From UHGV virus genome UHGV-0061697: a stretch of 14,426 bases of DNA. One strand, written 5' to 3'. Made by a program: the position numbers and the translations under genes. Under the pieces are notes generated by a model. The model was not told the origin of the DNA and did no database searches. It saw nothing but the letters and a program-made list of their open reading frames with translations. Origin of the DNA: a virus. Shown in pieces: positions 66-13,830 of this stretch. Position 1 is the first letter of the stretch. Each line of letters begins with the position of its first letter.

Positions 66-1979
66 ATGAGCAAAGTAAAAATCGGTGAATTAATAAACTC
101 ACTTGTTAGCGATGTTGAGTCAATAGATAACTCTGACCGTCCTCAAGGGGAAAAAACAAAAAAAATAAAGGCTGTTGCATTAAAATTTAAAAATGCATTA
201 TTTAATGACAAGCGAAAGTTTAGGGGGAAAGGATTAGAAAAAAGAATTACAGCCAACACATTCAATGCCTATATGAGCAGGGCCAGAAAACGGTTTGATG
301 ATAAACTTCATCATAGCTTTGAAAAAAATATACATCGCCTATCTGAAAAGTATCCTTTATATAATGAGGAGCTATTGTCATGGCTTTCTCTACCTGCTGC
401 CGATATTCGCCAGAGAATGTCAGCTTTACAGGCAAAATTAAAATTAATTCTCCCTTTATCAGAAGATTTATCTAATATCAGAATTGGTGATAACAAAAGT
501 CATAATAAGTTATTAAAATTATCAAATAAATATAAAGAGTGGCAATTCGCCATATCTGATTTAACTAGCGATAACTGGAAAGATAAGCGCGATTATTTAT
601 ATAAATTACTACAGCAAGGATCTGCCTTACTTGAGGAGTTGAATCAGCTAAAAGTTAACCATGAGATTCTCTATCATCTTCAACTAAGCCCTGCCGAACG
701 CGCATCTATCCAGCAACGATGGGCGGACGTTCTGCACAATAAGAAACGTAACGTGGTGGTCATTGATTACCCTAAATATATGCAAGCTATTTACGATATT
801 ATAAATAGCCCTGCTACATTAAATAATCTAAACACTCGTTCAGGTATGGCTCCTTTGGCATTTGCACTTGCAGCATTGTCAGGAAGACGAATGATTGAGA
901 TTATGTATCAAGGTACATTTACTGTTTCTGGTAAGTATACCGTTGATTTTTTAGGCCAAGCAAAAAAAAGAACTTCTGATGATATAACCAGAAAAATATA
1001 TACATTATGCGAAGCAAAAACATTTGTTTATTTAATAAATGTACTTCGCTCATGCCCAGCAGCATCTGATTTTGATGATGTCGTTAAAGGTTATGGAGAT
1101 AACGACACACGCTCTGAAAACGGACGGATTAATGCCATATTAGCAAAGGCTTTTAACCCGTGGGTTAAATCATTTTTCAAAGATGACCGCCGTGTTTATA
1201 AAGATAGTCGTGCTATTTATGCCCGTATTGCGTATGAAATGTTTTTCCGCGTAGATCCTCGTTGGAAAAACGTAGATGAGGATGTTTTCTTTATGGAAAT
1301 TTTAGGCCATGACGATGAAAACACTCAATTACACTATAAGCAATTCAAGCTGGCCAACTTCTCAAAGACATGGAGGCCAAATACTGGAAACGAAAATACC
1401 AGGCTGGAAGCATTGCAGCAGCTTGATGACGAAATGCCAGGATTCGCCAGAGGAGATGCCGGGGTTCGTCTGCATAACACAGTTAAGCAGCTGGTAGAGC
1501 AGGACCCCTCTATAAAAATCACGAACAGCACTCTAAGAGCATTCAAATTTAGCCCTACAATGATTAGTCGATACCTGGAATTTGCTGCTGATGCTCTGGG
1601 GCAATTTGTTGGCGAAAATGGACAATGGCAGCTGAAAATAGATTCTCCAGAAATCGTTATGCCTGACGAAGAAGAGCTGGAAGCAATACCTGAACAGACG
1701 GATGAATTATCAGAGGATGACGATCTGGATGACGACGAAATTGAGATAGAGGAAGAGGAAGAGGAAGAGGAAGAGGAAGAGGAAGAGAGCGTAGAAGAAC
1801 AGCAACCGCCCGCGCCTTCTTCACCTGTATCTAAGCCGGTATTTAAGCCCGTGAGAAATATTGGTGATGGCTCATACGTTGTTGAGTTTCATTATAATGG
1901 CCAGAATTATGCTTGGTCCGGCATTGCAAACAGCCCTATATCAGCAATGCAGTTAGCATGGCTGACATATTTCGGATAA
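66..1979 (+). CDS. telN: Protelomerase (telomere resolvase) TelN, 637 aa
   Basis: Full-length ORF from track. N-terminus MSKVKIGELIN...RPQGEKTKKIKA...NALFNDKRKFRGKGLEKRITANTFNAYMSRARKRFDDKLHHSF and the C-terminal half (...RVYKDSRAIYARIAYEMFFRVDPRWKNVDEDVFFMEILGHDDENTQLHYKQFKLANF...) match my memory of phage N15 TelN almost residue for residue. Length is about that of N15 TelN (about 630 aa). GGAG RBS upstream. Identity is from recall, not a database search. Confidence 0.9.
   Translation: MSKVKIGELINSLVSDVESIDNSDRPQGEKTKKIKAVALKFKNALFNDKRKFRGKGLEKRITANTFNAYMSRARKRFDDKLHHSFEKNIHRLSEKYPLYNEELLSWLSLPAADIRQRMSALQAKLKLILPLSEDLSNIRIGDNKSHNKLLKLSNKYKEWQFAISDLTSDNWKDKRDYLYKLLQQGSALLEELNQLKVNHEILYHLQLSPAERASIQQRWADVLHNKKRNVVVIDYPKYMQAIYDIINSPATLNNLNTRSGMAPLAFALAALSGRRMIEIMYQGTFTVSGKYTVDFLGQAKKRTSDDITRKIYTLCEAKTFVYLINVLRSCPAASDFDDVVKGYGDNDTRSENGRINAILAKAFNPWVKSFFKDDRRVYKDSRAIYARIAYEMFFRVDPRWKNVDEDVFFMEILGHDDENTQLHYKQFKLANFSKTWRPNTGNENTRLEALQQLDDEMPGFARGDAGVRLHNTVKQLVEQDPSIKITNSTLRAFKFSPTMISRYLEFAADALGQFVGENGQWQLKIDSPEIVMPDEEELEAIPEQTDELSEDDDLDDDEIEIEEEEEEEEEEEEESVEEQQPPAPSSPVSKPVFKPVRNIGDGSYVVEFHYNGQNYAWSGIANSPISAMQLAWLTYFG
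1749..1787. repeat. Tandem hexanucleotide repeat (GAGGAA)x6 plus partial unit inside telN, encoding a poly-Glu tract (13 E)
   Basis: Directly visible: gaggaa repeated six times from 1749 to 1784, then gag. In frame, so slippage would change tract length by two Glu per unit. Confidence 0.95.
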
Positions 1980-3918: not shown

Positions 3919-4110
3919 TTACTCCCCGTTCACCGAAAATTCACGATAGAAACGTTTCCACATACGATAAGTCTGCGCAAATTGTTCACCACGAAACATC
4001 GCCTTCCTGGCCTTCATGTTTTCCTTGTGAGACTTTCGGTCTATGAACCAAAACCATTGATGGAACACACAAAGCAAGAGACACAAAGATAATATCCAAT
4101 CATTACCCAT
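3919..4110 (-). CDS. Small hydrophobic/basic protein (63 aa), start overlapping the repA stop
   Basis: Internal ATG of track ORF 3919..4227 (MGNDWILSLCLLLCVFHQWFWFIDRKSHKEN...). The track's longer version would overlap 125 nt of repA. One TM-like segment followed by a basic tail. Could be spurious. Confidence 0.35.
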   Translation of the reverse strand: MGNDWILSLCLLLCVFHQWFWFIDRKSHKENMKARKAMFRGEQFAQTYRMWKRFYREFSVNGE

Positions 4111-7100
4111 AGAAAGCGCCCTGCTCTTCGTAGCTGCATGAGCTATTCCCCGTAATGTATTCACGTAACCGCCGCAGCTCATTGCTGGAAAGGTGATCCA
4201 TGAACTCTGTGAGGTACAGGGATGCAAACGTCATAGCTATGCTGGCTGATGACCATGATGACATAGTGGCCAACTCCTCACTGGAAAGCGCACTCATCGC
4301 CCAGGACTCAGGTACAGCCACTGGCAACACGGCCAAAGCCTCAGAAATTACTGAATGAGGGGCGTTTTGAACCTGCTCGTTTGTGGATCGCGTTTTATCA
4401 TCCATATATATATTGAGATCCAAATCGCGATCCATTTCGATGGCTGTCTTCTCGGCTTTACGCGTTTTTAGGGTTAGGCCATCTTTCTGACGCTGAACAA
4501 GAATATCCAGCATAAATGCCGCTGATTCAGGCTCAACAAAACGCAAGGTTGGACGCTTATCGCCGTCTCTGCCGCGACGTTTACCTGTTTTAAGGCCAAG
4601 AGAGTCGCAAATGTTTTTAAACAACGCTTCCGGCACTTTAGGCTTCCCTTTTGGCGTCATAAAACCACCAATGTGCAGAACGTTATTCAACAGGTCACGG
4701 CGTTCGGCTGTCATGAGGTTATCTCGAGCGAATTTGAGACGCTCCTGAGTCGCCTCGCCGGTCATAGTCTCAGGGTTGATACCGCAGTCGATAAAGTACT
4801 GCCGGAGAGTTGCTGATTTAAGCGCATAGAAACCGCGCGCCCCGACTTCAACAGTAGGAGTAGCTTTTACCTTGTGATCGATTATTCCAGGGAATTTAGT
4901 TTTAAAGACATCATCAGCCTGCTCGCGAGTCATCGCGGTCACTACAAAATATTGCCACTGTCCCGCCTGACGGTATGCGTAGGTAAAATTGATGGCTGCT
5001 TCTTCCCGGTCGTAACGACGAGCTGTTACCTCATCTAAAAGCATTGTTTCATAGCGGCGAACTTTGTCTCGAGCACCATCGAAATAGAATTTCAGCGTGC
5101 CTTCTTCAACCGGTAGTTTCAGTTCGTTTTCAATATCCCAGCGGACAAGTTTTGCCTGTTCTTCAAGCGTCAGCGCGCGTTTTTTTAGCAGTTCTTCACG
5201 CTCTGATTCTTGTGGAGTTTCTGTATTGAGGTGCAGATCCAGTGTCTGTTCCCACACAATATCCCGCGCTTCTTTACGCAGATCTTTACCGATATCATTC
5301 GCAGCATAATCGGTGGCCAGCGGTGATACCTTATAACCGTCGCTGTGCATGATGCAGATCATGTTGCTGGCGTAGTCGTTACGCGCAGTCGCTTCAATTG
5401 CGGCTGCTTTAATTTTCATCCTGGTAAAGTCGGTATTGGCCACCCCCATTGATATACGGTCGCCATCGAAAACGACATCCGTCAGTTCACCGTTCATACC
5501 TGCGGTAGCAAGCAATGCCTGGGCGAATGCTCGTTCTATTTTTTGCGGGTCAGTTTCACGTTTTGCACGAGCTTTATCAAAGCCGATAATAAATTCTTTT
5601 GCTGTACGGTCGCGGCGTAGCATTTGCACTGCGTCGCTGGGTACAACTTCACCACAGAACATGCCGAAATGACGGTCAAAATGTTTTTGCTCAATCGACA
5701 CGCCGGATGAAATAGACGGGCTATAAATCAGGCCGTCGTATTTTTTGACCATCTTTTTCGGTTGATTGGTAAATGCTTCAACTTCTGGCTCTGGTTTGTT
5801 TTTCTGGTTTACACACAGAAATTTCTTACCAGGAAAATGCATTCTCAGGGTGGCTGTCACATCTTCTGCAAAGGTGGAGCTGTCGGTGGCCAACATGATT
5901 TTTTCGCCATCCGATACAGCTTTCACCACCTCGGTCATGATGCGATCTTTTTCTGTATAAAAAACCCGGATTGGCTCACCTGTTTCGCGGTTGCGAACAT
6001 CAACAGGTAATTCAATTACGTGGATCTGCAGCCATGCCGGTAAACCTAGTTCTTCACGGCGTTTCATAGCCAGTTCAGCCAGGTCAACCAGTAGATCGTT
6101 CGCATCAGCATCCACCATGATTGGGTGTTGTTCCGTTCTGGCCAGCGCGTCAATTAGCGTATTGAATACAGCAACCGGGTTTTCCATAGCCCGACCGGAA
6201 AGAACGGCACGTAGCCCTTGCGTGGCCTCGTCAAAGCCAAAATAGTCGTGCTGGCGCATCAACGGTTGCCAGCAGTTTTTAACAATCGAGTTTATGCAGA
6301 TGGTCAGTTTACTGGCGTATGGAGCCATTTCCTGATAGCCAGGGTCCTGATAGTGCAGGATATCGGCTTTTACACCTTTTCCTTCTGTCATCATTTCCCA
6401 CAGGCCACCAATAAGGGAGACACGGTGAGCAACAGAGATACCACGTTCTGAGCTATGCATTAACGGTCGTAACAATCCAGTAGATTTGCCGGAACCCATA
6501 CCAGCACGGACGATGACTATCCCCTGTAGTGATTGCACGTACTTCAGGACATCATCGGTCATTACCGAAGTTTCAAAACGCTTATAGGTGATATGTTGAG
6601 GGCGTTTATTGGGATCAGTTATGCGTTCGCTGAAAGAGCGCGGAGCCTGGGCAATACGGCACTTTTTATTCAGGCGACGGGCAATGTGGTCTTTTACCGT
6701 AGCACGATAGATATTTTCCAGTCCCATTTCACGCAGAACGATGCAGAACATGTTAAATAAATCTGACGGACTGTTAGGAACCGGGCAGGTTAGCATGCCA
6801 ATATCCACCGCTCTCAGCAGCTCTTTGGCAAAAGTACGACGGTTATCCCGCTTAATTGTCTTCAGGCGGTTGAGCGTCAGAGATAGCAAATCAGTACCGG
6901 TTTTCAGGCGGTTTGCTGTTGCAAATAGTTGACGTGCTGTTTCACGAAGTCCACGTAGTTTGTGCAGGTCGTTGAAGTCACTGCACTCCATTTGCGGATC
7001 GTCTTCAAAAGTTGGATAGACGCAGCGGACATCGTTGAATTTCGATAAGATTTCATAGCCAGTCCGCAGGCCGGTATTCCCTTTTCCTTCTGTGGCAGAT

Positions 7101-8098
7101 TTCCGGTCATTATCCAGTGCGCAGGTGATTTTTGCCGCCGGGTACATGTTTACCAGTTGTTCCACAACATGAACCATGTTGTTAGCGGATACAGCGACAA
7201 CCACAGCGTCAAAGCGTTTATCTTTTTTCGTGGCAAGCCAGATGGATGCACCAGTAGCAAAACCTTCTGTAACAGCGATGTTTTGCGCCCCTTTCAGCTC
7301 ACCGATAACAAAGCAGGCACCGACGAAATCGCCGCTGGTTACTGCGCTGGTCTGGTATTTCCCACCTTGTTTGTCGATTCGCTGCCAACCCACAATACGA
7401 CCATCATAACGACCGTCCAGGTGAGCCAGAGGGATAGCCATATATGTGGTTGGCCCCCGGCTCCATTTCGCACTGTCGTGACTGGTCACGCGACGCACAT
7501 CACATGAACTAAAAACGTCACGAATACCTTTTTTAATCGCATATGGCCATGAGCCGTCTTCAGCCTGAGCATGTTCCCACGCGCTGTGGAATGCCAGCCA
7601 TCCCAGCAAACGTTCATGGTCCATTTGGTTGTTTTTCAGGTCATTAATTCGTTTTTGTTCTTCACGGCGACGACGTGCTTCGGCCTGACGTTCTATTCTT
7701 TCCCGTTCTTCTTCCGGTTGTGCGACCACGGTCGCATTATTCCGTTGTTGCTCACGGCGATATTCAGAAAACAGGAAGGAGAAACCGCTCCATGAGCCAG
7801 CATCGCTGCCTTTATGGACGAAGTTAATGAACGGGTAATCAATCCCTTTGCTGTGTTCCAGCCTGGAGTAAATTTCTACGCGTCCTTTCAGGCTCTTTTC
7901 GAGAGCTTCTGGAGATGTTTTATTGTATGAAGAGTAACGCTCAACCCCCCCGCGAGGGTTGAGTTGGATGTTGTCGGAACAGGCAGGCCAGTTGATACCA
8001 GCCATCTGTGCCAGCTCGGTTAGTTCATCCCGTGCTGCTTCAATTAGCGAGAACGGATCGCTGCCAAAGCGATCCGCATAGAAATCGTTTAATGTCAT
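4103..8098 (-). CDS. repA: Replication protein RepA (multidomain primase-helicase, P4 alpha / N15 RepA family), 1331 aa
   Basis: Single 1331-aa ORF; N15 RepA is about 1320 aa. Walker A motif GMGSGKST is present (RAGMGSGKSTGLL). Position between the immA-like operon and cB matches N15 organisation. Recognition is from memory, not search. Confidence 0.88.
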   Translation of the reverse strand: MTLNDFYADRFGSDPFSLIEAARDELTELAQMAGINWPACSDNIQLNPRGGVERYSSYNKTSPEALEKSLKGRVEIYSRLEHSKGIDYPFINFVHKGSDAGSWSGFSFLFSEYRREQQRNNATVVAQPEEERERIERQAEARRRREEQKRINDLKNNQMDHERLLGWLAFHSAWEHAQAEDGSWPYAIKKGIRDVFSSCDVRRVTSHDSAKWSRGPTTYMAIPLAHLDGRYDGRIVGWQRIDKQGGKYQTSAVTSGDFVGACFVIGELKGAQNIAVTEGFATGASIWLATKKDKRFDAVVVAVSANNMVHVVEQLVNMYPAAKITCALDNDRKSATEGKGNTGLRTGYEILSKFNDVRCVYPTFEDDPQMECSDFNDLHKLRGLRETARQLFATANRLKTGTDLLSLTLNRLKTIKRDNRRTFAKELLRAVDIGMLTCPVPNSPSDLFNMFCIVLREMGLENIYRATVKDHIARRLNKKCRIAQAPRSFSERITDPNKRPQHITYKRFETSVMTDDVLKYVQSLQGIVIVRAGMGSGKSTGLLRPLMHSSERGISVAHRVSLIGGLWEMMTEGKGVKADILHYQDPGYQEMAPYASKLTICINSIVKNCWQPLMRQHDYFGFDEATQGLRAVLSGRAMENPVAVFNTLIDALARTEQHPIMVDADANDLLVDLAELAMKRREELGLPAWLQIHVIELPVDVRNRETGEPIRVFYTEKDRIMTEVVKAVSDGEKIMLATDSSTFAEDVTATLRMHFPGKKFLCVNQKNKPEPEVEAFTNQPKKMVKKYDGLIYSPSISSGVSIEQKHFDRHFGMFCGEVVPSDAVQMLRRDRTAKEFIIGFDKARAKRETDPQKIERAFAQALLATAGMNGELTDVVFDGDRISMGVANTDFTRMKIKAAAIEATARNDYASNMICIMHSDGYKVSPLATDYAANDIGKDLRKEARDIVWEQTLDLHLNTETPQESEREELLKKRALTLEEQAKLVRWDIENELKLPVEEGTLKFYFDGARDKVRRYETMLLDEVTARRYDREEAAINFTYAYRQAGQWQYFVVTAMTREQADDVFKTKFPGIIDHKVKATPTVEVGARGFYALKSATLRQYFIDCGINPETMTGEATQERLKFARDNLMTAERRDLLNNVLHIGGFMTPKGKPKVPEALFKNICDSLGLKTGKRRGRDGDKRPTLRFVEPESAAFMLDILVQRQKDGLTLKTRKAEKTAIEMDRDLDLNIYMDDKTRSTNEQVQNAPHSVISEALAVLPVAVPESWAMSALSSEELATMSSWSSASIAMTFASLYLTEFMDHLSSNELRRLREYITGNSSCSYEEQGAFYG
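4384..4434. other. Candidate internal replication-origin element inside the 3' end of repA: 9-bp inverted repeat TGGATCGCG / CGCGATCCA around an AT-rich spacer with (AT)5 and three GATC sites
   Basis: Read directly: tggatcgcg (4384-4392) and cgcgatcca (4426-4434) flank ttttatcatccatatatatattgagatccaaat. N15-type replicons are reported to carry ori within the 3' part of repA (established knowledge). The function here is inferred. Confidence 0.3.
7477..7490. repeat. 14-bp palindromic motif CGTGACTGGTCACG (copy 2 of 3), inside the repA coding sequence
   Basis: Exact 14-mer identical to 13483-13496 and reverse complement of 2797-2810. Confidence 0.5.
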
Positions 8099-8343: not shown

Positions 8344-8940
8344 TCATCTACCCTCAACCATGAATGATTTGATCGTTCCGACTATTTGGTGAACAAATTC
8401 AAGATCGCTTTTCCTGAAGATGGCGCGTTGTGAGTTTGTTCCATCCAGATAGTAATTTTCATCATCAAAACGGGCCAGGCGCTGGATAGTGATATTTCCT
8501 GCAGTATCACGAACCAGAACATCCTCGCCGGGGACCAGTTCCAGCGCAGAATCGACCAGGAGAAAATCGCCTGGCTGATAGTTTCCCTGCGTAAGATTGC
8601 TGATAGTTAACGCATACACAGTATTGCGCTGGCTGATGAATGGCAGGAATCGCTCAGTATTTGGAACCTGTCCCGGCTTCCACTCTTCATCCGGCCCACT
8701 TTCAGTTGTGCCAATAACAGGAATGCGATCAGGGTCATATTCTGTCCCATATAGCACCCAATGCACTGGCTTGCGTAAGCACTTAGCCAGGGCAATACCT
8801 ATCTCCAGTGACGGCATTACGTCGCCACGTTCTAAGTTTTGGACGCCTGCTATAGAGATATCGACAGCCTCAGCAACTTCTCGCAACGTCAGCTTCATCT
8901 CTAAACGGCGTGCTTTCAGTCGTTCGCCTCGTGTTTTCAT
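8344..8940 (-). CDS. cB: Prophage repressor CB (N-terminal HTH, C-terminal LexA/CI-like S24 fold), 198 aa
   Basis: ORF from track. N-terminal HTH LTLREVAEAVDISIAGVQNLERG; C-terminal GDFLLVD...GEDVLVRD...ITIQRL pattern typical of the S24-like domain. Divergent from a cro-like gene across an operator-bearing intergenic region. Confidence 0.85.
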   Translation of the reverse strand: MKTRGERLKARRLEMKLTLREVAEAVDISIAGVQNLERGDVMPSLEIGIALAKCLRKPVHWVLYGTEYDPDRIPVIGTTESGPDEEWKPGQVPNTERFLPFISQRNTVYALTISNLTQGNYQPGDFLLVDSALELVPGEDVLVRDTAGNITIQRLARFDDENYYLDGTNSQRAIFRKSDLEFVHQIVGTIKSFMVEGR

Positions 8941-9031: not shown

Positions 9032-9253
9032 ATGAAACCAGAAGAACTTATTCGCCATTTTGGCAGTGTAGAAAAAGCAGCGGCAGGGGTAGGTGTAACA
9101 CCCGGAGCTGTTTACCAATGGTTAACCGCTGGAGAGATTCCTTCATTGCGGCAAAGCGATATTGAAGTTCGTACTGCTTACAAGCTGAAGAGTGACTTTA
9201 CAACTCGGCGGGTAAAGCAGTCGATTAAGGAGAGTCGTAAGCGTGGAGCTTGA
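9032..9253 (+). CDS. cro: Cro-like HTH regulator (73 aa)
   Basis: Internal ATG of track ORF 9005..9253 (the track start is TTG). MKPEELIRHFGSVEKAAAGVGVTPGAVYQWL is a Cro/CI-type HTH. TATAAT at 9020-9025 sits 6 nt before the ATG, with no Shine-Dalgarno, which suggests a leaderless mRNA. Confidence 0.7.
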   Translation: MKPEELIRHFGSVEKAAAGVGVTPGAVYQWLTAGEIPSLRQSDIEVRTAYKLKSDFTTRRVKQSIKESRKRGA

Positions 9254-9938
9254 ATATATACGCAGCTGCGTCTCTACGGCATTGGCTGATGTTCATTATC
9301 GCCAGCGTGGCATTCTGGAGGTCCAGCTTGAGCAGATGCGTCTCGGTAGATCAGGACGGTTTAACAATAAACCAGTCCGGTCAATCAGTGTGGGGGATGA
9401 TAACTCATACGAAGTGTCCGTTCCTGCTGAGCCGGTTAGATTCCATCAGGGGAAAACATTTAAACAATCATCAATGTTGCTCACTGATATTGATTTTCAG
9501 AGCGCCAGCTGGCGCAGGGCTATTGGTCAGTTGAATAACGAGGAATCAGCCTGGCTTTATTATTGCTACGGATGCAAGCCTGATTACAACAATGATGTGA
9601 TTGTTTGTCAGTGGTTATGGCTTCATTCGGGGGGCGGCTTTAAAAAAATGAAGGCCTCCACGAAAAAAGCCATGCGGAAATTGATTTATTACGCGGCACA
9701 ACAGGTTAAATCAGAACTTACGTGTGCTGAGGCAGTTGATGAGAGAGAACAGGACAGGCATCTGAGTTTTCTACTGAATATATCTATTGATAGCTGGAGA
9801 CAAGATTATAAAGAACGCTGGCTTTTAATTAAGTCGCGATGTCTGAGCTTAAATCGAACTGCATTATTAAATGCGGCGGAGAAGCGCAGTGAAATCATCA
9901 AACGCCATCGGGCAGGAAGTGCCATTCTGCCTTTGTAA
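9243..9938 (+). CDS. Putative Q-like late antiterminator (231 aa); assignment positional
   Basis: ORF from track with GTG start and AAGGAG 10 nt upstream. It follows cro as Q does in the N15 immB region (cB, cro, Q). I cannot confirm family membership from sequence alone. Confidence 0.4.
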   Translation: MELEYIRSCVSTALADVHYRQRGILEVQLEQMRLGRSGRFNNKPVRSISVGDDNSYEVSVPAEPVRFHQGKTFKQSSMLLTDIDFQSASWRRAIGQLNNEESAWLYYCYGCKPDYNNDVIVCQWLWLHSGGGFKKMKASTKKAMRKLIYYAAQQVKSELTCAEAVDEREQDRHLSFLLNISIDSWRQDYKERWLLIKSRCLSLNRTALLNAAEKRSEIIKRHRAGSAILPL

Positions 9939-10998: not shown

Positions 10999-11417
10999 TG
11001 GCAAAGGCTTTTACACCAGAACAGAGGGAAGAACTGAATAAACAAATTGTGGAACTCGTGCGCCTGAATGGACGAGGAACGGTTAGGCAACTTGCGGATG
11101 AAACTGGTATTAGCCGGTGTGCTGTTAGTCGTTTATCAAGAGAGCTTGCTGCCAGTGGTGATTTGTATATCTCTGGCTCCGGGATATTTCTGTCTGCACA
11201 AGCACGCAAGGACTGGCAAAACGCCCGTAAAAAACTATCAAGAGTAAAGCCGAAGAAATCGGTAGTGGTTGATCCAGACCTTATCTGGTCATTACCTGAC
11301 GGAGAAATACGTCGTTACGACAGGCGCTTGAACATGATTTGTCACGATTGCCGGAAAAGTGAAGTTATGCAGCGTGTGCTGGCTTTTTATCAGGGAAATT
11401 TACAGGAGGTGGCGTAG
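10998..11417 (+). CDS. Hypothetical protein with probable helix-turn-helix (139 aa)
   Basis: ORF from track; HTH-like segment TVRQLADETGISRCAVSRLSRELA. Start overlaps the previous stop (TAATG) with AAGGAG upstream. Confidence 0.55.
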   Translation: MAKAFTPEQREELNKQIVELVRLNGRGTVRQLADETGISRCAVSRLSRELAASGDLYISGSGIFLSAQARKDWQNARKKLSRVKPKKSVVVDPDLIWSLPDGEIRRYDRRLNMICHDCRKSEVMQRVLAFYQGNLQEVA

Positions 11418-11707
11418 TGAATATCGACACCACGATAACGATCGATACGGCCCTAAATATCGGTCTGGCACTTCTCGGTTGGTTTTACATCATGTCCCGT
11501 GCATGGCGATGGCTTGGTTCCATTTTTCTAAAACAGTGGAAAAAACGGCGCAAACAGGAGAGACGCCAGAAAGCGTTAGAGGCGTTCTATGACGCATTTG
11601 AACTTAGCCGCATTGAGCCTGGCACAACAGCCAGGATAGCGACAAAAGGCGACCTGATGATAGTGATGTTCCGACAGGAGAGAGCAGAGAAAGGGGAATC
11701 AGCATGA
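11417..11707 (+). CDS. Small membrane protein (96 aa; one N-terminal TM helix then a highly basic segment)
   Basis: ORF from track; GTG start overlapping the upstream stop (TAGTG) with GGAGGTGG upstream. TM segment ALNIGLALLGWFYIM followed by KQWKKRRKQERRQK. Confidence 0.45.
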   Translation: MNIDTTITIDTALNIGLALLGWFYIMSRAWRWLGSIFLKQWKKRRKQERRQKALEAFYDAFELSRIEPGTTARIATKGDLMIVMFRQERAEKGESA

Positions 11708-12438
11708 AATTTTCCAAATTTTCTGAGTTGGTGAATCGTATTTTGTCCAACAACCACAGCCATCGTCGCGATATGGATGTAACAATCGTTATTCATTCGC
11801 CTGGCAGCATTGGTTCAACACCCTCAGTTGAGGTTCAGTCAATTCACGCTGGTTTTGATTGGGATTCCGGGAAAGTGCTGATTTTCCCAGCACAGCCACT
11901 GACCACGCTAACACCAGAACAGATTACTGATATTACTGATAGTGTGCGCAAAGGTCAGTCCTGGCACGCATATCAGGAATACAAGAAGCATAAAGAGCAG
12001 TTGGAAAAATTGTCGATTGAACTGGATGCTGCAAAACAGCGCGTAGCAGAACTGGAAGCCAAACCTGTAAGCCAAACTTACAAGTTAACTTTTGAGCAAT
12101 GGCTGGAACAGCAGCATGACAAAATTGATGTTGATTGTGGATGTGTAAGTACTGAAATGTTTATGCACTGGATAAGGGTCGCGTATGAGGCTGGCAACTA
12201 TCCGGTAACTCCGGATGGTTGGATAAGCTGTAGTGAGCGAATGCCTGAAAAGGGCGAGAACGTGCTTATTTCGGTGAATTTCGATAGCTCTCTGGTTGAA
12301 CCGCTAATATGCTCCGCACGCTATACCGGAAGCACCTTTCGGAGAGGAGATGCAACGATTAAGCCGGGTAATGGTATTGAGCAAGCAACTCACTGGATGC
12401 CGCTACCAGAACCTCCGCAGGAGTCGAAGAGTGAATAA
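11704..12438 (+). CDS. Hypothetical protein with C-terminal DUF551-like domain (244 aa)
   Basis: ORF from track. The C-terminal segment PVTPDGWISCSERMPEKGENVLISV...ATHWMPLPEPP resembles the small phage DUF551 domain as I remember it. ATGA overlap with the upstream gene. Confidence 0.55.
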   Translation: MKFSKFSELVNRILSNNHSHRRDMDVTIVIHSPGSIGSTPSVEVQSIHAGFDWDSGKVLIFPAQPLTTLTPEQITDITDSVRKGQSWHAYQEYKKHKEQLEKLSIELDAAKQRVAELEAKPVSQTYKLTFEQWLEQQHDKIDVDCGCVSTEMFMHWIRVAYEAGNYPVTPDGWISCSERMPEKGENVLISVNFDSSLVEPLICSARYTGSTFRRGDATIKPGNGIEQATHWMPLPEPPQESKSE

Positions 12439-12652
12439 AGCAGAGTTATTTCAGAAAATATCGGCTCTCGCGACTGAATGCCACGCTATAGCATCTGAGC
12501 TTGATGTTGGCGATGAACGAACCGAGATGTTCGAAATATACAGTGTGCTGCGCAATCTCTGTCGGCGTGGCTACGCCACTCAAGTAGGGCGAATGACTAA
12601 CCCACTACTCTCATCCTGTGATGAGGATGACTCGGATGAGGATGACGAATGA
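12431..12652 (+). CDS. Hypothetical small protein with acidic C-terminus (about 73 aa)
   Basis: Track ORF 12350..12652 trimmed to the GTG at 12431, which has AGGAG 7 nt upstream; the longer version overlaps the DUF551 gene extensively. C-terminus DEDDSDEDDE. Confidence 0.4.
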   Translation: MNKAELFQKISALATECHAIASELDVGDERTEMFEIYSVLRNLCRRGYATQVGRMTNPLLSSCDEDDSDEDDE

Positions 12653-13179
12653 TGCATAAAGCAGTAGCCGGTGAGTTTCAGAAGGAAGTCGATAATACTA
12701 CCGTTCTATTGGACGATATTTTAAGCATTCTCGCGTTGCTTGAGGCTGGCGATTGGTCAGAACATTGCACTAAAACAGAGCTAGGCGGTCGGCTTGAAAG
12801 AGAGATTACACGACTTATTGGTGATGCGCAGGAAGCCACTGTCACTGGCTATGAGTTAATCGCTGAAGCCTGGCGTTTGATGGATGGACAAGACCCTAAA
12901 ACCAGCGATTGGCATAGCAAGGCTTCGAAGTATTTAAATTCCAATATTGTAGAAAAAGTTGATGATGACCGTATTGAGGCCGTTAAGGCTGTGTTGCGTA
13001 GGCTGGCTGGCAACTCTCCGGTAACTCCGGATGGTCATGTTCAGTTTTCTGTTTCACTTCCTGCAGCGTTTGGTGGAGATAAATATTTTATTGATGGTGT
13101 ATTTCAACCTTTGAGATATGAGCGTGACTGTGAAAGGGCGGTTGTGGCCGCTGGCGGTGTAGTTAATTGGGTTAAGTAA
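12649..13179 (+). CDS. Hypothetical protein (176 aa) sharing a 30-nt GN-x-PVTPDG segment with the DUF551-like gene
   Basis: ORF from track; ATGA overlap with the upstream gene. Confidence 0.5.
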   Translation: MMHKAVAGEFQKEVDNTTVLLDDILSILALLEAGDWSEHCTKTELGGRLEREITRLIGDAQEATVTGYELIAEAWRLMDGQDPKTSDWHSKASKYLNSNIVEKVDDDRIEAVKAVLRRLAGNSPVTPDGHVQFSVSLPAAFGGDKYFIDGVFQPLRYERDCERAVVAAGGVVNWVK

Positions 13180-13262
13180 TTTTCAGGAGGATTTATGGCG
13201 CTGACACCGGCAGAACGGCAAAGGAGACGCAGGACTGGATTCTAGAACCTGACGAGTTACGT

Positions 13263-13487
13263 ATGTTGGGGGAAATTTGTGTATTGCGTAGACCAGGGCG
13301 AGTTCCATATTCGGAGAACGAAGTCATTGGTTTGCTGATCAGGAAAAACTATAAGGAGCTGCAGAAGCAGCTATCTACTACTTGCCCGCGATGTGGTCAA
13401 AAAATGCCTGTTTCAGAATGCATTTTTGATGGCGAAGGGTCATGCCACCTTACAACCACGAGGCTGAAACTTGCGCTCAAAGCGTGA
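13263..13487 (+). CDS. Hypothetical small Cys-containing protein (74 aa; CPRCG...C...CH); possibly the 3' part of a disrupted gene
   Basis: ORF from track. No Shine-Dalgarno before the ATG, whereas a strong AGGAGG precedes a 16-codon ORF (13195-13245) in another frame just upstream. Confidence 0.35.
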   Translation: MLGEICVLRRPGRVPYSENEVIGLLIRKNYKELQKQLSTTCPRCGQKMPVSECIFDGEGSCHLTTTRLKLALKA

Positions 13488-13496
13488 CTGGTCACG
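13483..13496. repeat. 14-bp palindromic motif CGTGACTGGTCACG (copy 3 of 3), spanning the stop of the 74-aa ORF and abutting the RBS of the next gene
   Basis: Exact 14-mer read directly. Confidence 0.5.
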
Positions 13497-13505
13497 GAGG
13501 GATAA

Positions 13506-13748
13506 ATGGATAAAAAGGCATTGCTTTTTGAAATGATACGAAAACGGAGCGAAAAGAGCTTTTCTGATGGTGGTGATGGGTTTGTTTTCGCTTCGATGCT
13601 TGCTTTTGATGTTGGGTTAAATAGCAGAATTGTTAAAAGGATGCTTGATTCTGCTGTCCGTACTGGACTTCTTGAGAAAGTTGATCGTGGCATAGGGAGA
13701 GAGCATAAGTATCGGGCCACACAGCAGTTTACGCAGTTAATTCATTGA
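13506..13748 (+). CDS. Hypothetical protein (80 aa)
   Basis: ORF from track; GGAGGG RBS 4-9 nt upstream of the ATG. Confidence 0.5.
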   Translation: MDKKALLFEMIRKRSEKSFSDGGDGFVFASMLAFDVGLNSRIVKRMLDSAVRTGLLEKVDRGIGREHKYRATQQFTQLIH

Positions 13749-13770
13749 AAATTGACCGTAAAGTTTGAGT

Positions 13771-13798
13771 TTTACCCTGTAATTTTATACAGTATAAA
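13771..13798 (+). promoter_or_regulatory. Candidate SOS-regulated promoter: -35 TTTACC (13771-13776), -10 TATAAA (13793-13798), with a LexA box ccCTGTaattttatACAGta (13775-13794) filling the spacer
   Basis: CTGT-N8-ACAG with an AT-rich spacer matches the E. coli LexA box consensus taCTGTatatatatACAGta. It is the only such site I found in the window. Confidence 0.6.
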
Positions 13799-13830
13799 TA
13801 ACCTTTTTTAGTTAAATGGTATGAGATTTA

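Follow-up and report, generated by a model that had tools for sequence, protein, structure and literature searches.

Introduction

The window analyzed here, a stretch of 14,426 nucleotides (nt) from the virus genome UHGV-0061697, covers the early/immunity region of an N15-like linear phage-plasmid. Within it, two adjacent open reading frames, ORF1 and ORF2, share a nearly identical block of about 30 nt that encodes a short peptide linker between protein modules, and that recurs in numerous other phages between modules of quite different kinds. The block lies in genes for mosaic proteins of the Ea22/EaA/DUF551 type, a family of early accessory proteins in temperate enterobacterial phages. It is a long-standing question whether phage mosaicism arises by homologous exchange at short boundary sequences or by random joining followed by selection. 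The 30-mer offers a case of such a boundary sequence that is both abundant and sharp-edged; it is present in Stx phages, HK620, Sf6, and N15-like phage-plasmids, and it makes this question directly testable. It further identifies DUF551 and the modules found in its place as exchangeable, and lysogeny control in Stx phages may be affected by which C-terminal module is carried.

A linker block repeated in two adjacent genes

The genes and sequence elements around the block are the following.

11704–12438, plus strand: ORF1, a mosaic protein of 244 residues, made up of an N-terminal module, a long helix (residues 71–119), a helical module (130–162), the linker, and DUF551 (172–239).
12189–12219, plus strand: linker block copy 1, GGCTGGCAACTATCCGGTAACTCCGGATGGT, encoding (E)AGNYPVTPDG, residues 163–172 of ORF1.
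12220–12246, plus strand: conserved first 27 nt of DUF551 modules, TGGATAAGCTGTAGTGAGCGAATGCCT (WISCSERMP).
12220–13035, plus strand: 816-bp segment between the copies, comprising the DUF551 module, a small gene, the N-terminal part of ORF2, and one linker; absent in relatives of the PhiR46_1 and YDC107_1 type.
12391–12438, plus strand: conserved 3′ tail of the C-terminal module, HWMPLPEPPQESKSE-stop, with GGAG 7 nt ahead of the GTG start (12431) of the next gene.
12431–12652, plus strand: small gene between ORF1 and ORF2, 73 residues, GTG start, phrog_4220; its start overlaps the stop of ORF1 and its stop overlaps the start of ORF2.
12649–13179, plus strand: ORF2, 176 residues, made up of a helical N-terminal part (residues 1–119), the linker, and a 47-residue C-terminal module (13036–13179).
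13005–13035, plus strand: linker block copy 2, GGCTGGCAACTCTCCGGTAACTCCGGATGGT, encoding (L)AGNSPVTPDG, residues 120–129 of ORF2.

The original prediction had described 30-mers at 12190–12219 and 13006–13035 that differ at one base and encode AGNYPVTPDG and AGNSPVTPDG. Both the positions and, by translation of ORF1 and ORF2, the peptides were confirmed, the single difference being A versus C at position 11. The identity reaches one base further upstream (G at 12189 and 13005), which gives a block of 31 nt with 30 of 31 bases identical. The two copies lie in direct orientation in adjacent genes and in the same frame, at a spacing of 816 nt, a multiple of 3. None of 200 dinucleotide-preserving shuffles of the window yielded two matches within 3 mismatches.

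Outside the block the two genes are dissimilar, as had been predicted. BLASTN of ORF1 against ORF2 returned the 31-mer only, and the BLASTP alignment of the two proteins is limited to 19 residues around the linker. Immediately beside the block, ORF1 and ORF2 agree at 13 of 60 nt on the left and at 20 of 60 nt on the right. Because the flanks of the two copies are unrelated at both the DNA and the protein level, the longer flanking homology that would point to an ordinary duplication is absent, and the earlier view that this is not a simple duplication stands. The left edge of copy 1 is also the main start of similarity to other loci, with 86 high-scoring segment pairs (HSPs) starting at 12180–12189, and at copy 2 44 HSPs end at 13030–13039.

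Domain architecture on either side of the block

Residues 172–239 of ORF1 match DUF551 (Pfam PF04448) with E=3.3e-24 and 85.9 bits against a cut-off of 22; the only other Pfam match of ORF1 is a sub-threshold one to Phage_scaffold. ORF2 matches no Pfam family in a scan at E<=0.01 and, lacking a PF04448 match, is therefore not a DUF551 member. Neither protein matches the Ead/Ea22 family (IPR025153) in the same scan. NCBIfam gave no matches, PADLOC gave only marginal ones for neighboring genes, sequence searches of the PDB returned nothing meaningful, and a Foldseek search of the ORF1 model against the PDB returned nothing with E<0.5. ORF1 and ORF2 each match several PHROGs over differing partial segments (eleven partial matches for ORF1), a pattern that marks them as mosaics.

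With a mean predicted local distance difference test (pLDDT) score of 59, the AlphaFold model of ORF1 is of low overall quality. It contains the long helix at residues 71–119, the small helical module at 130–162 with pLDDT of ~70–76, and a beta-rich DUF551 with 81–89; the linker is modeled as coil, with a dip in pLDDT to 58 between the helical module and the DUF551 beta domain. The model of ORF2 is unusable (mean pLDDT 42.7); a helix predicted in it ends at residue 119, just ahead of the linker. The notion that the block codes for a linker is thus upheld by its Pro/Gly-rich composition, its position directly ahead of the DUF551 envelope, and its coil state in the ORF1 model. In DUF551 cassettes, the conserved start TGGATAAGCTGTAGTGAGCGAATGCCT lengthens the 5′ homology to ~57 nt, and 74 HSPs end at 12240–12249. 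The ends of the DUF551 modules are near-identical (WISCSERMP and HWMPLPEPPQE), and their cores of 40–55 residues are unalignable at the DNA level (L002–L154, alignment A1).

Junctions in close relatives

The nearest named relatives of the window are the Escherichia phages PhiR46_1 and YDC107_1, together with ~46-kb plasmids of Escherichia coli and Shigella. Positions 11400–12219 of the window align with 6001–6820 of PhiR46_1 (locus L001), and positions 13005–13233 align with 6790–7018. The two alignments overlap on exactly the single linker copy of PhiR46_1, which therefore lacks exactly the 816 bp between the window copies. PhiR46_1 encodes a 219-residue hybrid of the N-terminal part of ORF1 (172 residues, through the linker) and the 47-residue C-terminal module of ORF2. 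Such hybrids are very common in the protein database; one of them, P0174, is found on 713 contigs.

Six more plasmids were picked by their overall similarity to window positions 11400–13800, independently of the 30-mer. The same 12219/13005 junction is present in L171 and L175, and the flanks of PhiR46_1, L171, and L175 are 92–99.6% identical to the window, so that exact linker-to-linker junctions are seen in close relatives. In L170 the N-terminal part of ORF1 is replaced, the replacement ending at 12181, and homology resumes at 13040 in L172 and at 13030 in L173 and L174.

With respect to upstream and downstream sequence, the window's own combinations are U2D0 and U3D2. U2D2 is found in L001, L069, L072, and L100, and U3D0 in L008, which has the reciprocal combination of the ORF2 N-terminal part with an ORF1-type DUF551. 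Since this reciprocal form exists, all four upstream/downstream combinations occur, and the switches are clean at the edges of the block. The proposed reassortment of protein modules around the block is borne out by these four combinations and by the linker-to-linker junctions.

Several further features of the relatives deserve mention. The 219-residue hybrids P0163–P0231, which correspond to 11704–12219 plus 13036–13179 of the window, carry the NCBI name 'DUF551 domain-containing protein' and have no precomputed PF04448 hit. The name looks as if it had been carried over through the common N-terminal part and linker, which explains an unstable annotation: the hybrids are named for DUF551 although the non-DUF551 module of ORF2 has replaced that domain. 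A second recurrent junction lies inside ORF1 at ~12041–12061, at the end of the long helix (AELEAKPVSQTYKL). A break at this place occurs in 5 of the 7 relatives found by overall similarity, and L175 has ~1.1 kb of extra genes there. A three-part hybrid in L173 (positions 1905–2060, NZ_LT906558.1), seen also in P0074 and P0076, consists of the linker, the first 12 residues of DUF551 (WISCSEQMPDDG), and the C-terminal module of ORF2 (RIQFSVSL...); its junction lies at a PDG/PDDG microhomology and not at the 30-mer. In L172 (~2221–2250, NZ_CP117614.1), a diverged linker (LPVVPDDNR, CCGGTGGTGCCGGATGATAAT) takes the place of the canonical block ahead of the ORF2 C-terminal module, which suggests a wider and older family of PVxPD(G/D) linkers.

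Spread and reassortment across phages and bacterial genomes

A search for the 30-mer in related phages, as suggested with the original prediction, found it without mismatch (A or C allele) in at least 120 IMG/VR contigs. The C form is present in 114 phage records, which include VT1/VT2-Sakai, 933W-type Stx phages, mEp043, mEp213, HK629, HK620 (hkaE), Sf6, and a Salmonella phage. Of 5426 complete E. coli genomes, 853 (16%) have this form as well; a single genome holds up to 4 copies, and 81 of the sites are on plasmids.

The contexts in which the block is found are highly diverse. When 119 of them were compared by their 300-nt flanks, they fell into 29 upstream and 33 downstream nucleotide clusters in 62 combinations, which are not counts of independent events, as the clusters are single-linkage and some contigs redundant. 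Column identity stays at the random level until position -3 from the block and is partial for 27 nt after it, where DUF551 modules begin with WISCSERMP; the 100% identity within the block itself follows from the way in which the contexts were retrieved. Of 4278 pairwise comparisons between distinct contexts, 80% lose similarity no more than 3 nt from the left edge. At the right edge the corresponding share is 56%, and in 24% of the pairs similarity stops 20–29 nt past the edge. In 51% of the pairs the block is an isolated island of identity.

The modules joined at the block are equally varied. The claim that different C-terminal modules follow the linker holds, with at least 10 unrelated protein clusters in this position, DUF551 making up 79% of occurrences. 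In the protein database, the N-terminal part of ORF2 (residues 1–129, 72–79% coverage) is joined to DUF551 or to other modules, and the N-terminal part of ORF1 to many DUF551 cores; one protein, P0069, has two linker copies inside a single ORF. Of the clusters with several members, 6 of the 11 upstream and 6 of the 17 downstream ones contain both alleles of the A/C single-nucleotide polymorphism (SNP) in the block. Such assortment of the SNP with both flanks is as would be expected if crossovers fall inside the block.

A conserved 3′ tail and replacement of C-terminal modules

Most C-terminal modules, several non-DUF551 folds included, end in a common tail motif, ..(E/A)(P/A)PQ(Q)EV(K/N)..stop. 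The DNA that encodes the motif, ..CCGCAGGAGGTGAA.TGA(TG), also contains the Shine-Dalgarno sequence of the next gene and its overlapping start. Of 103 distinct C-terminal modules, 78 have the motif, among them that of ORF1; ORF2 is without it. For at least 10 pairs of loci, identity is at least 91% in the 120 nt ahead of the linker and at least 93% in the 120 nt past the stop codon, while the module core between these arms has no BLAST similarity. The combination of conserved outer arms with a dissimilar core indicates that C-terminal modules are replaced as cassettes between two conserved arms.

Codon conservation in the block

The degree to which the nucleotide sequence is constrained by the peptide was assessed with a peptide-degenerate scan, in which the back-translated peptide leaves 18 fixed bases. 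In IMG/VR, none of the variants recovered by the scan departs from the canonical codons by more than 2 changes. A set of bacteria with one genome per species, which served as a control and holds little information on taxonomic breadth, gave 3 enterobacterial matches (two from Citrobacter and one from Kluyvera) with 0 changes and 12 chance matches in unrelated phyla with 6–12 changes. The canonical codons include GCT, GTA, and ACT, which are non-preferred in E. coli. The nucleotide identity of the block thus exceeds what the peptide requires. In the A allele, a predicted hairpin at 12175–12235 takes in the TGG codon that follows the block (CAACUAUCCGG/UAACU/CCGGAUGGUUG).

Mechanism and alternative explanations

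Taken at the level of sequence comparison, the block is probably a short conserved boundary sequence for homologous exchange, of an intragenic, in-frame kind that codes for the flexible Pro/Gly-rich linker AGN(S/Y)PVTPDG. Because near-identical nucleotides sit between unrelated flanks, the block would offer homology over a short distance, where any upstream module could be joined to any downstream module, whether by phage (Rad52-type) recombination, by that of the host, or by slipped mispairing inside a single genome. As the junction falls in a linker and the frame is kept, the resulting chimeras would be likely to fold and to be retained. The 3′ block (..PPQ(Q)EVK-stop) would act as the other arm for most C-terminal modules and so turn the module into a replaceable cassette. 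Recombination between the two direct copies of the window would give the single hybrid gene of PhiR46_1-type relatives, or the reverse event would insert the segment. Deletion between direct copies in one genome is possible by RecA-independent slipped mispairing. It is from the pattern of identities and junctions that we infer the homology-driven nature of the exchanges and the enzymes acting in them.

At 30–31 nt, or ~57 nt together with the DUF551 start, the block is about as long as the minimal efficient pairing segment, which is 23–27 bp for Red-beta and 31–34 bp for RecA; Rad52-type phage recombinases drive exchange on short, diverged homologies (PMC3945230). A number of observations weigh against this interpretation. 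Owing to the mismatch, the longest perfect run between the window copies is 19 nt, which is below the published minima. Exchange between the window copies would therefore be inefficient, or it happened between identical ancestors. Most of the comparison loci were retrieved through the 30-mer itself, which introduces an ascertainment bias, and, for the reasons given above, their combinations may overstate the number of independent events. The conservation of the block may come in part from selection on the peptide and from a young pool of E. coli, Shigella, and Salmonella phages. Moreover, other junctions lie beside the block, at ~12041–12061, 12950–12969, and 13030–13040, and the hybrid of L173, like that of L174, joins WISCSEQMPDDG to RIQFSV without obvious homology. 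In view of such junctions elsewhere and without homology, illegitimate recombination followed by selection also shapes these genes.

Could the latter process account for the block as well? Under homology-independent recombination with selection, joining would be random, the survivors would have their junctions in the tolerant interdomain linker, and the block would be carried passively by one of the modules. The L173 and L174 junctions, in the same genes and without a conserved block, are of this kind, and most phage mosaic boundaries have no boundary sequences (PMC3029335). However, the block is tied to neither side: 29 upstream clusters and 33 downstream ones have it, and at each of its edges similarity stops cleanly. 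Random joining would not put one and the same 30-nt sequence at each junction, and the internal SNP assorts with both flanks. We therefore consider illegitimate joining an unlikely explanation of the block. Still less plausible is that ORF1 and ORF2 are ordinary paralogues from an old duplication, with the 30-mer as their slowest-evolving part. The copies do lie in neighboring genes that agree in strand and frame, but there is neither DNA nor protein similarity beyond the block, the Pfam and PHROG assignments of the two genes differ, and other phages have the block between many unrelated modules, with combinations that are discordant at high identity. As nothing beyond the block is common to both genes, paralogy is for practical purposes excluded.

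A further alternative is that the block is conserved as a functional nucleic acid, its hairpin TCCGG-TAACT-CCGGA serving either as a regulatory element in RNA or as the target of a nuclease or recombinase that stimulates exchange. Copy 1 (A allele) with 15-nt flanks is indeed predicted to form an 11-bp hairpin with a minimum free energy of -23.6 kcal/mol (z = -3.06), and codons are kept beyond the need of the peptide. Copy 2, with the commoner C allele, reaches a z of only -0.84, however, and the natural variants G24A (6 times) and G24T (once) break a pair of the hairpin stem without compensation, while the stem itself is explained by two CCG proline codons, each with a G after it. Nor is there an Rfam match or a promoter- or terminator-like site at the block, or a nuclease or recombinase gene adjoining it in the window, and the copies are direct and not inverted. 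All this makes a nucleic acid function very unlikely. More far-reaching than exchange at a boundary sequence, and rather doubtful, is the idea of an architecture dedicated to cassette exchange, made up of the linker together with the 3′ tail. An oligomerising scaffold that stays constant would then present swappable C-terminal 'warheads' (the DUF551 cores and at least 9 other folds) directed against variable factors of the host or of rival phages, and the nucleotide identity of the arms, perhaps with the hairpin, would be kept because it promotes exchange. If true, this architecture would be the phage counterpart of polymorphic toxin loci.

Other candidate systems were considered and rejected. 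For a diversity-generating retroelement, there is no reverse transcriptase among the window ORFs scanned, and the repeat is only 31 nt long with a single A/C difference. For site-specific inversion or a shufflon, the copies are direct, and the only recombinase-like gene in the window is that of the protelomerase (66–1979). For a polymorphic toxin (CdiA/Rhs), searches of Pfam, NCBIfam, and PADLOC with ORF1, ORF2, and the intervening gene revealed neither a toxin nor an immunity family.

Relation to known systems

Short conserved boundary sequences at the mosaic junctions of lambdoid phages go back to the modular theory of Susskind and Botstein (1978) and were described for HK620 by Clark et al. 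(2001), as summarised in PMC3029335, according to which clear boundary sequences are nevertheless the exception at phage mosaic junctions. The block shares with them a short conserved stretch between unrelated segments, reassorting modules, and a proposed role of homologous recombination, and HK620 itself has the 30-mer, in hkaE. The boundary sequences that Clark and colleagues described in 2001 are reportedly of the gene-boundary type, like the 3′ block of the present genes with its ribosome-binding site and overlapping stop and start. Unlike the lambdoid boundary sequences, the linker block is intragenic and in frame and codes for an interdomain peptide linker; it therefore reassorts protein domains, not whole genes.

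In polymorphic toxins, a short motif likewise borders a constant N-terminal part and interchangeable C-terminal modules (CdiA-CT after VENN, Rhs after PxxxxDPxGL), and the DNA that codes for the motif is thought to permit module replacement by recombination. The present genes differ in that both sides of the motif vary and in that they belong to the early accessory genes of phages.

A matching protein architecture is that of the mosaic Ea22/EaA proteins of lambda and Stx phages, which have an N-terminal segment, a coiled coil, and a variable C-terminal domain (Dydecka 2020, PMC7093339; Goddard 2024, PMC10834534). The C-terminal tail motif is found there too, and relatives of ORF1 are annotated as Ea22 or EaA, 'Ea22' in PhiR46_1 being the depositor's annotation. 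DUF551 has been called a portable domain, and a 16-residue segment is common to variants V1 and V2 (Goddard 2024, PMC10834534). Both of these papers treat mosaicism at the protein level only and mention neither recombination (0 occurrences of the word) nor a conserved nucleotide junction. Ongoing exchange of fragments between otherwise unrelated phage proteins at high identity has been reported by Smug et al. (2023, PMC10684548), whose study highlights receptor-binding proteins, endolysins, and replication proteins and contains no analysis of junction sequences (0 occurrences of 'linker' and 'breakpoint').

Neither the peptide nor the DNA string turned up in the literature searched, the boundary sequences of Clark et al. 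(2001) lying outside this comparison. The concept of boundary sequences, the mosaic Ea22/DUF551 proteins, and domain shuffling in phages are thus already known, and what is described here is an unusually clear, abundant, and intragenic example with a partner arm. The original interpretation of a shared linker and recombination site for domain shuffling is supported, with the refinements that the block is not the sole junction, that a partner block exists at the 3′ end, and that the general phenomenon was already in the literature.

Genomic context and additional observations

Besides the two genes with the block, the window holds the following.

66–1979: protelomerase.
4103–8098, minus strand: RepA-type primase, 1331 residues.
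8344–8940, minus strand: cI-like repressor.
9243–9938: Q antiterminator.
After the Q antiterminator and ahead of ORF1 and ORF2: a 3′-5′ exonuclease gene, then DUF977 and DUF4752 genes.

Downstream of ORF2, in the region 13196–13487, 34 nt (GAACGG...AGACGGG) are missing in the window at ~13233 relative to PhiR46_1. This indel frameshifts a gene of 108 residues (phrog_536, 'transcriptional regulator'), so that the reading frame from the ATG at 13196 meets a stop after 16 codons, and the remnant of the gene in the window is an ORF of 74 residues (13263–13487) only. A run of acidic GAGGAA/GATGAC repeats (families D7, D11, and D14 of the direct repeats) occupies window positions 1700–1780, near the 3′ end of the protelomerase gene. 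On the minus strand between the protelomerase and replication genes, two Rfam matches exceed the gathering score, one to C4 antisense RNA (2551–2637, 73.6 bits) and one to the Hfq-binding RNA isrK (2663–2736, 62.5 bits).

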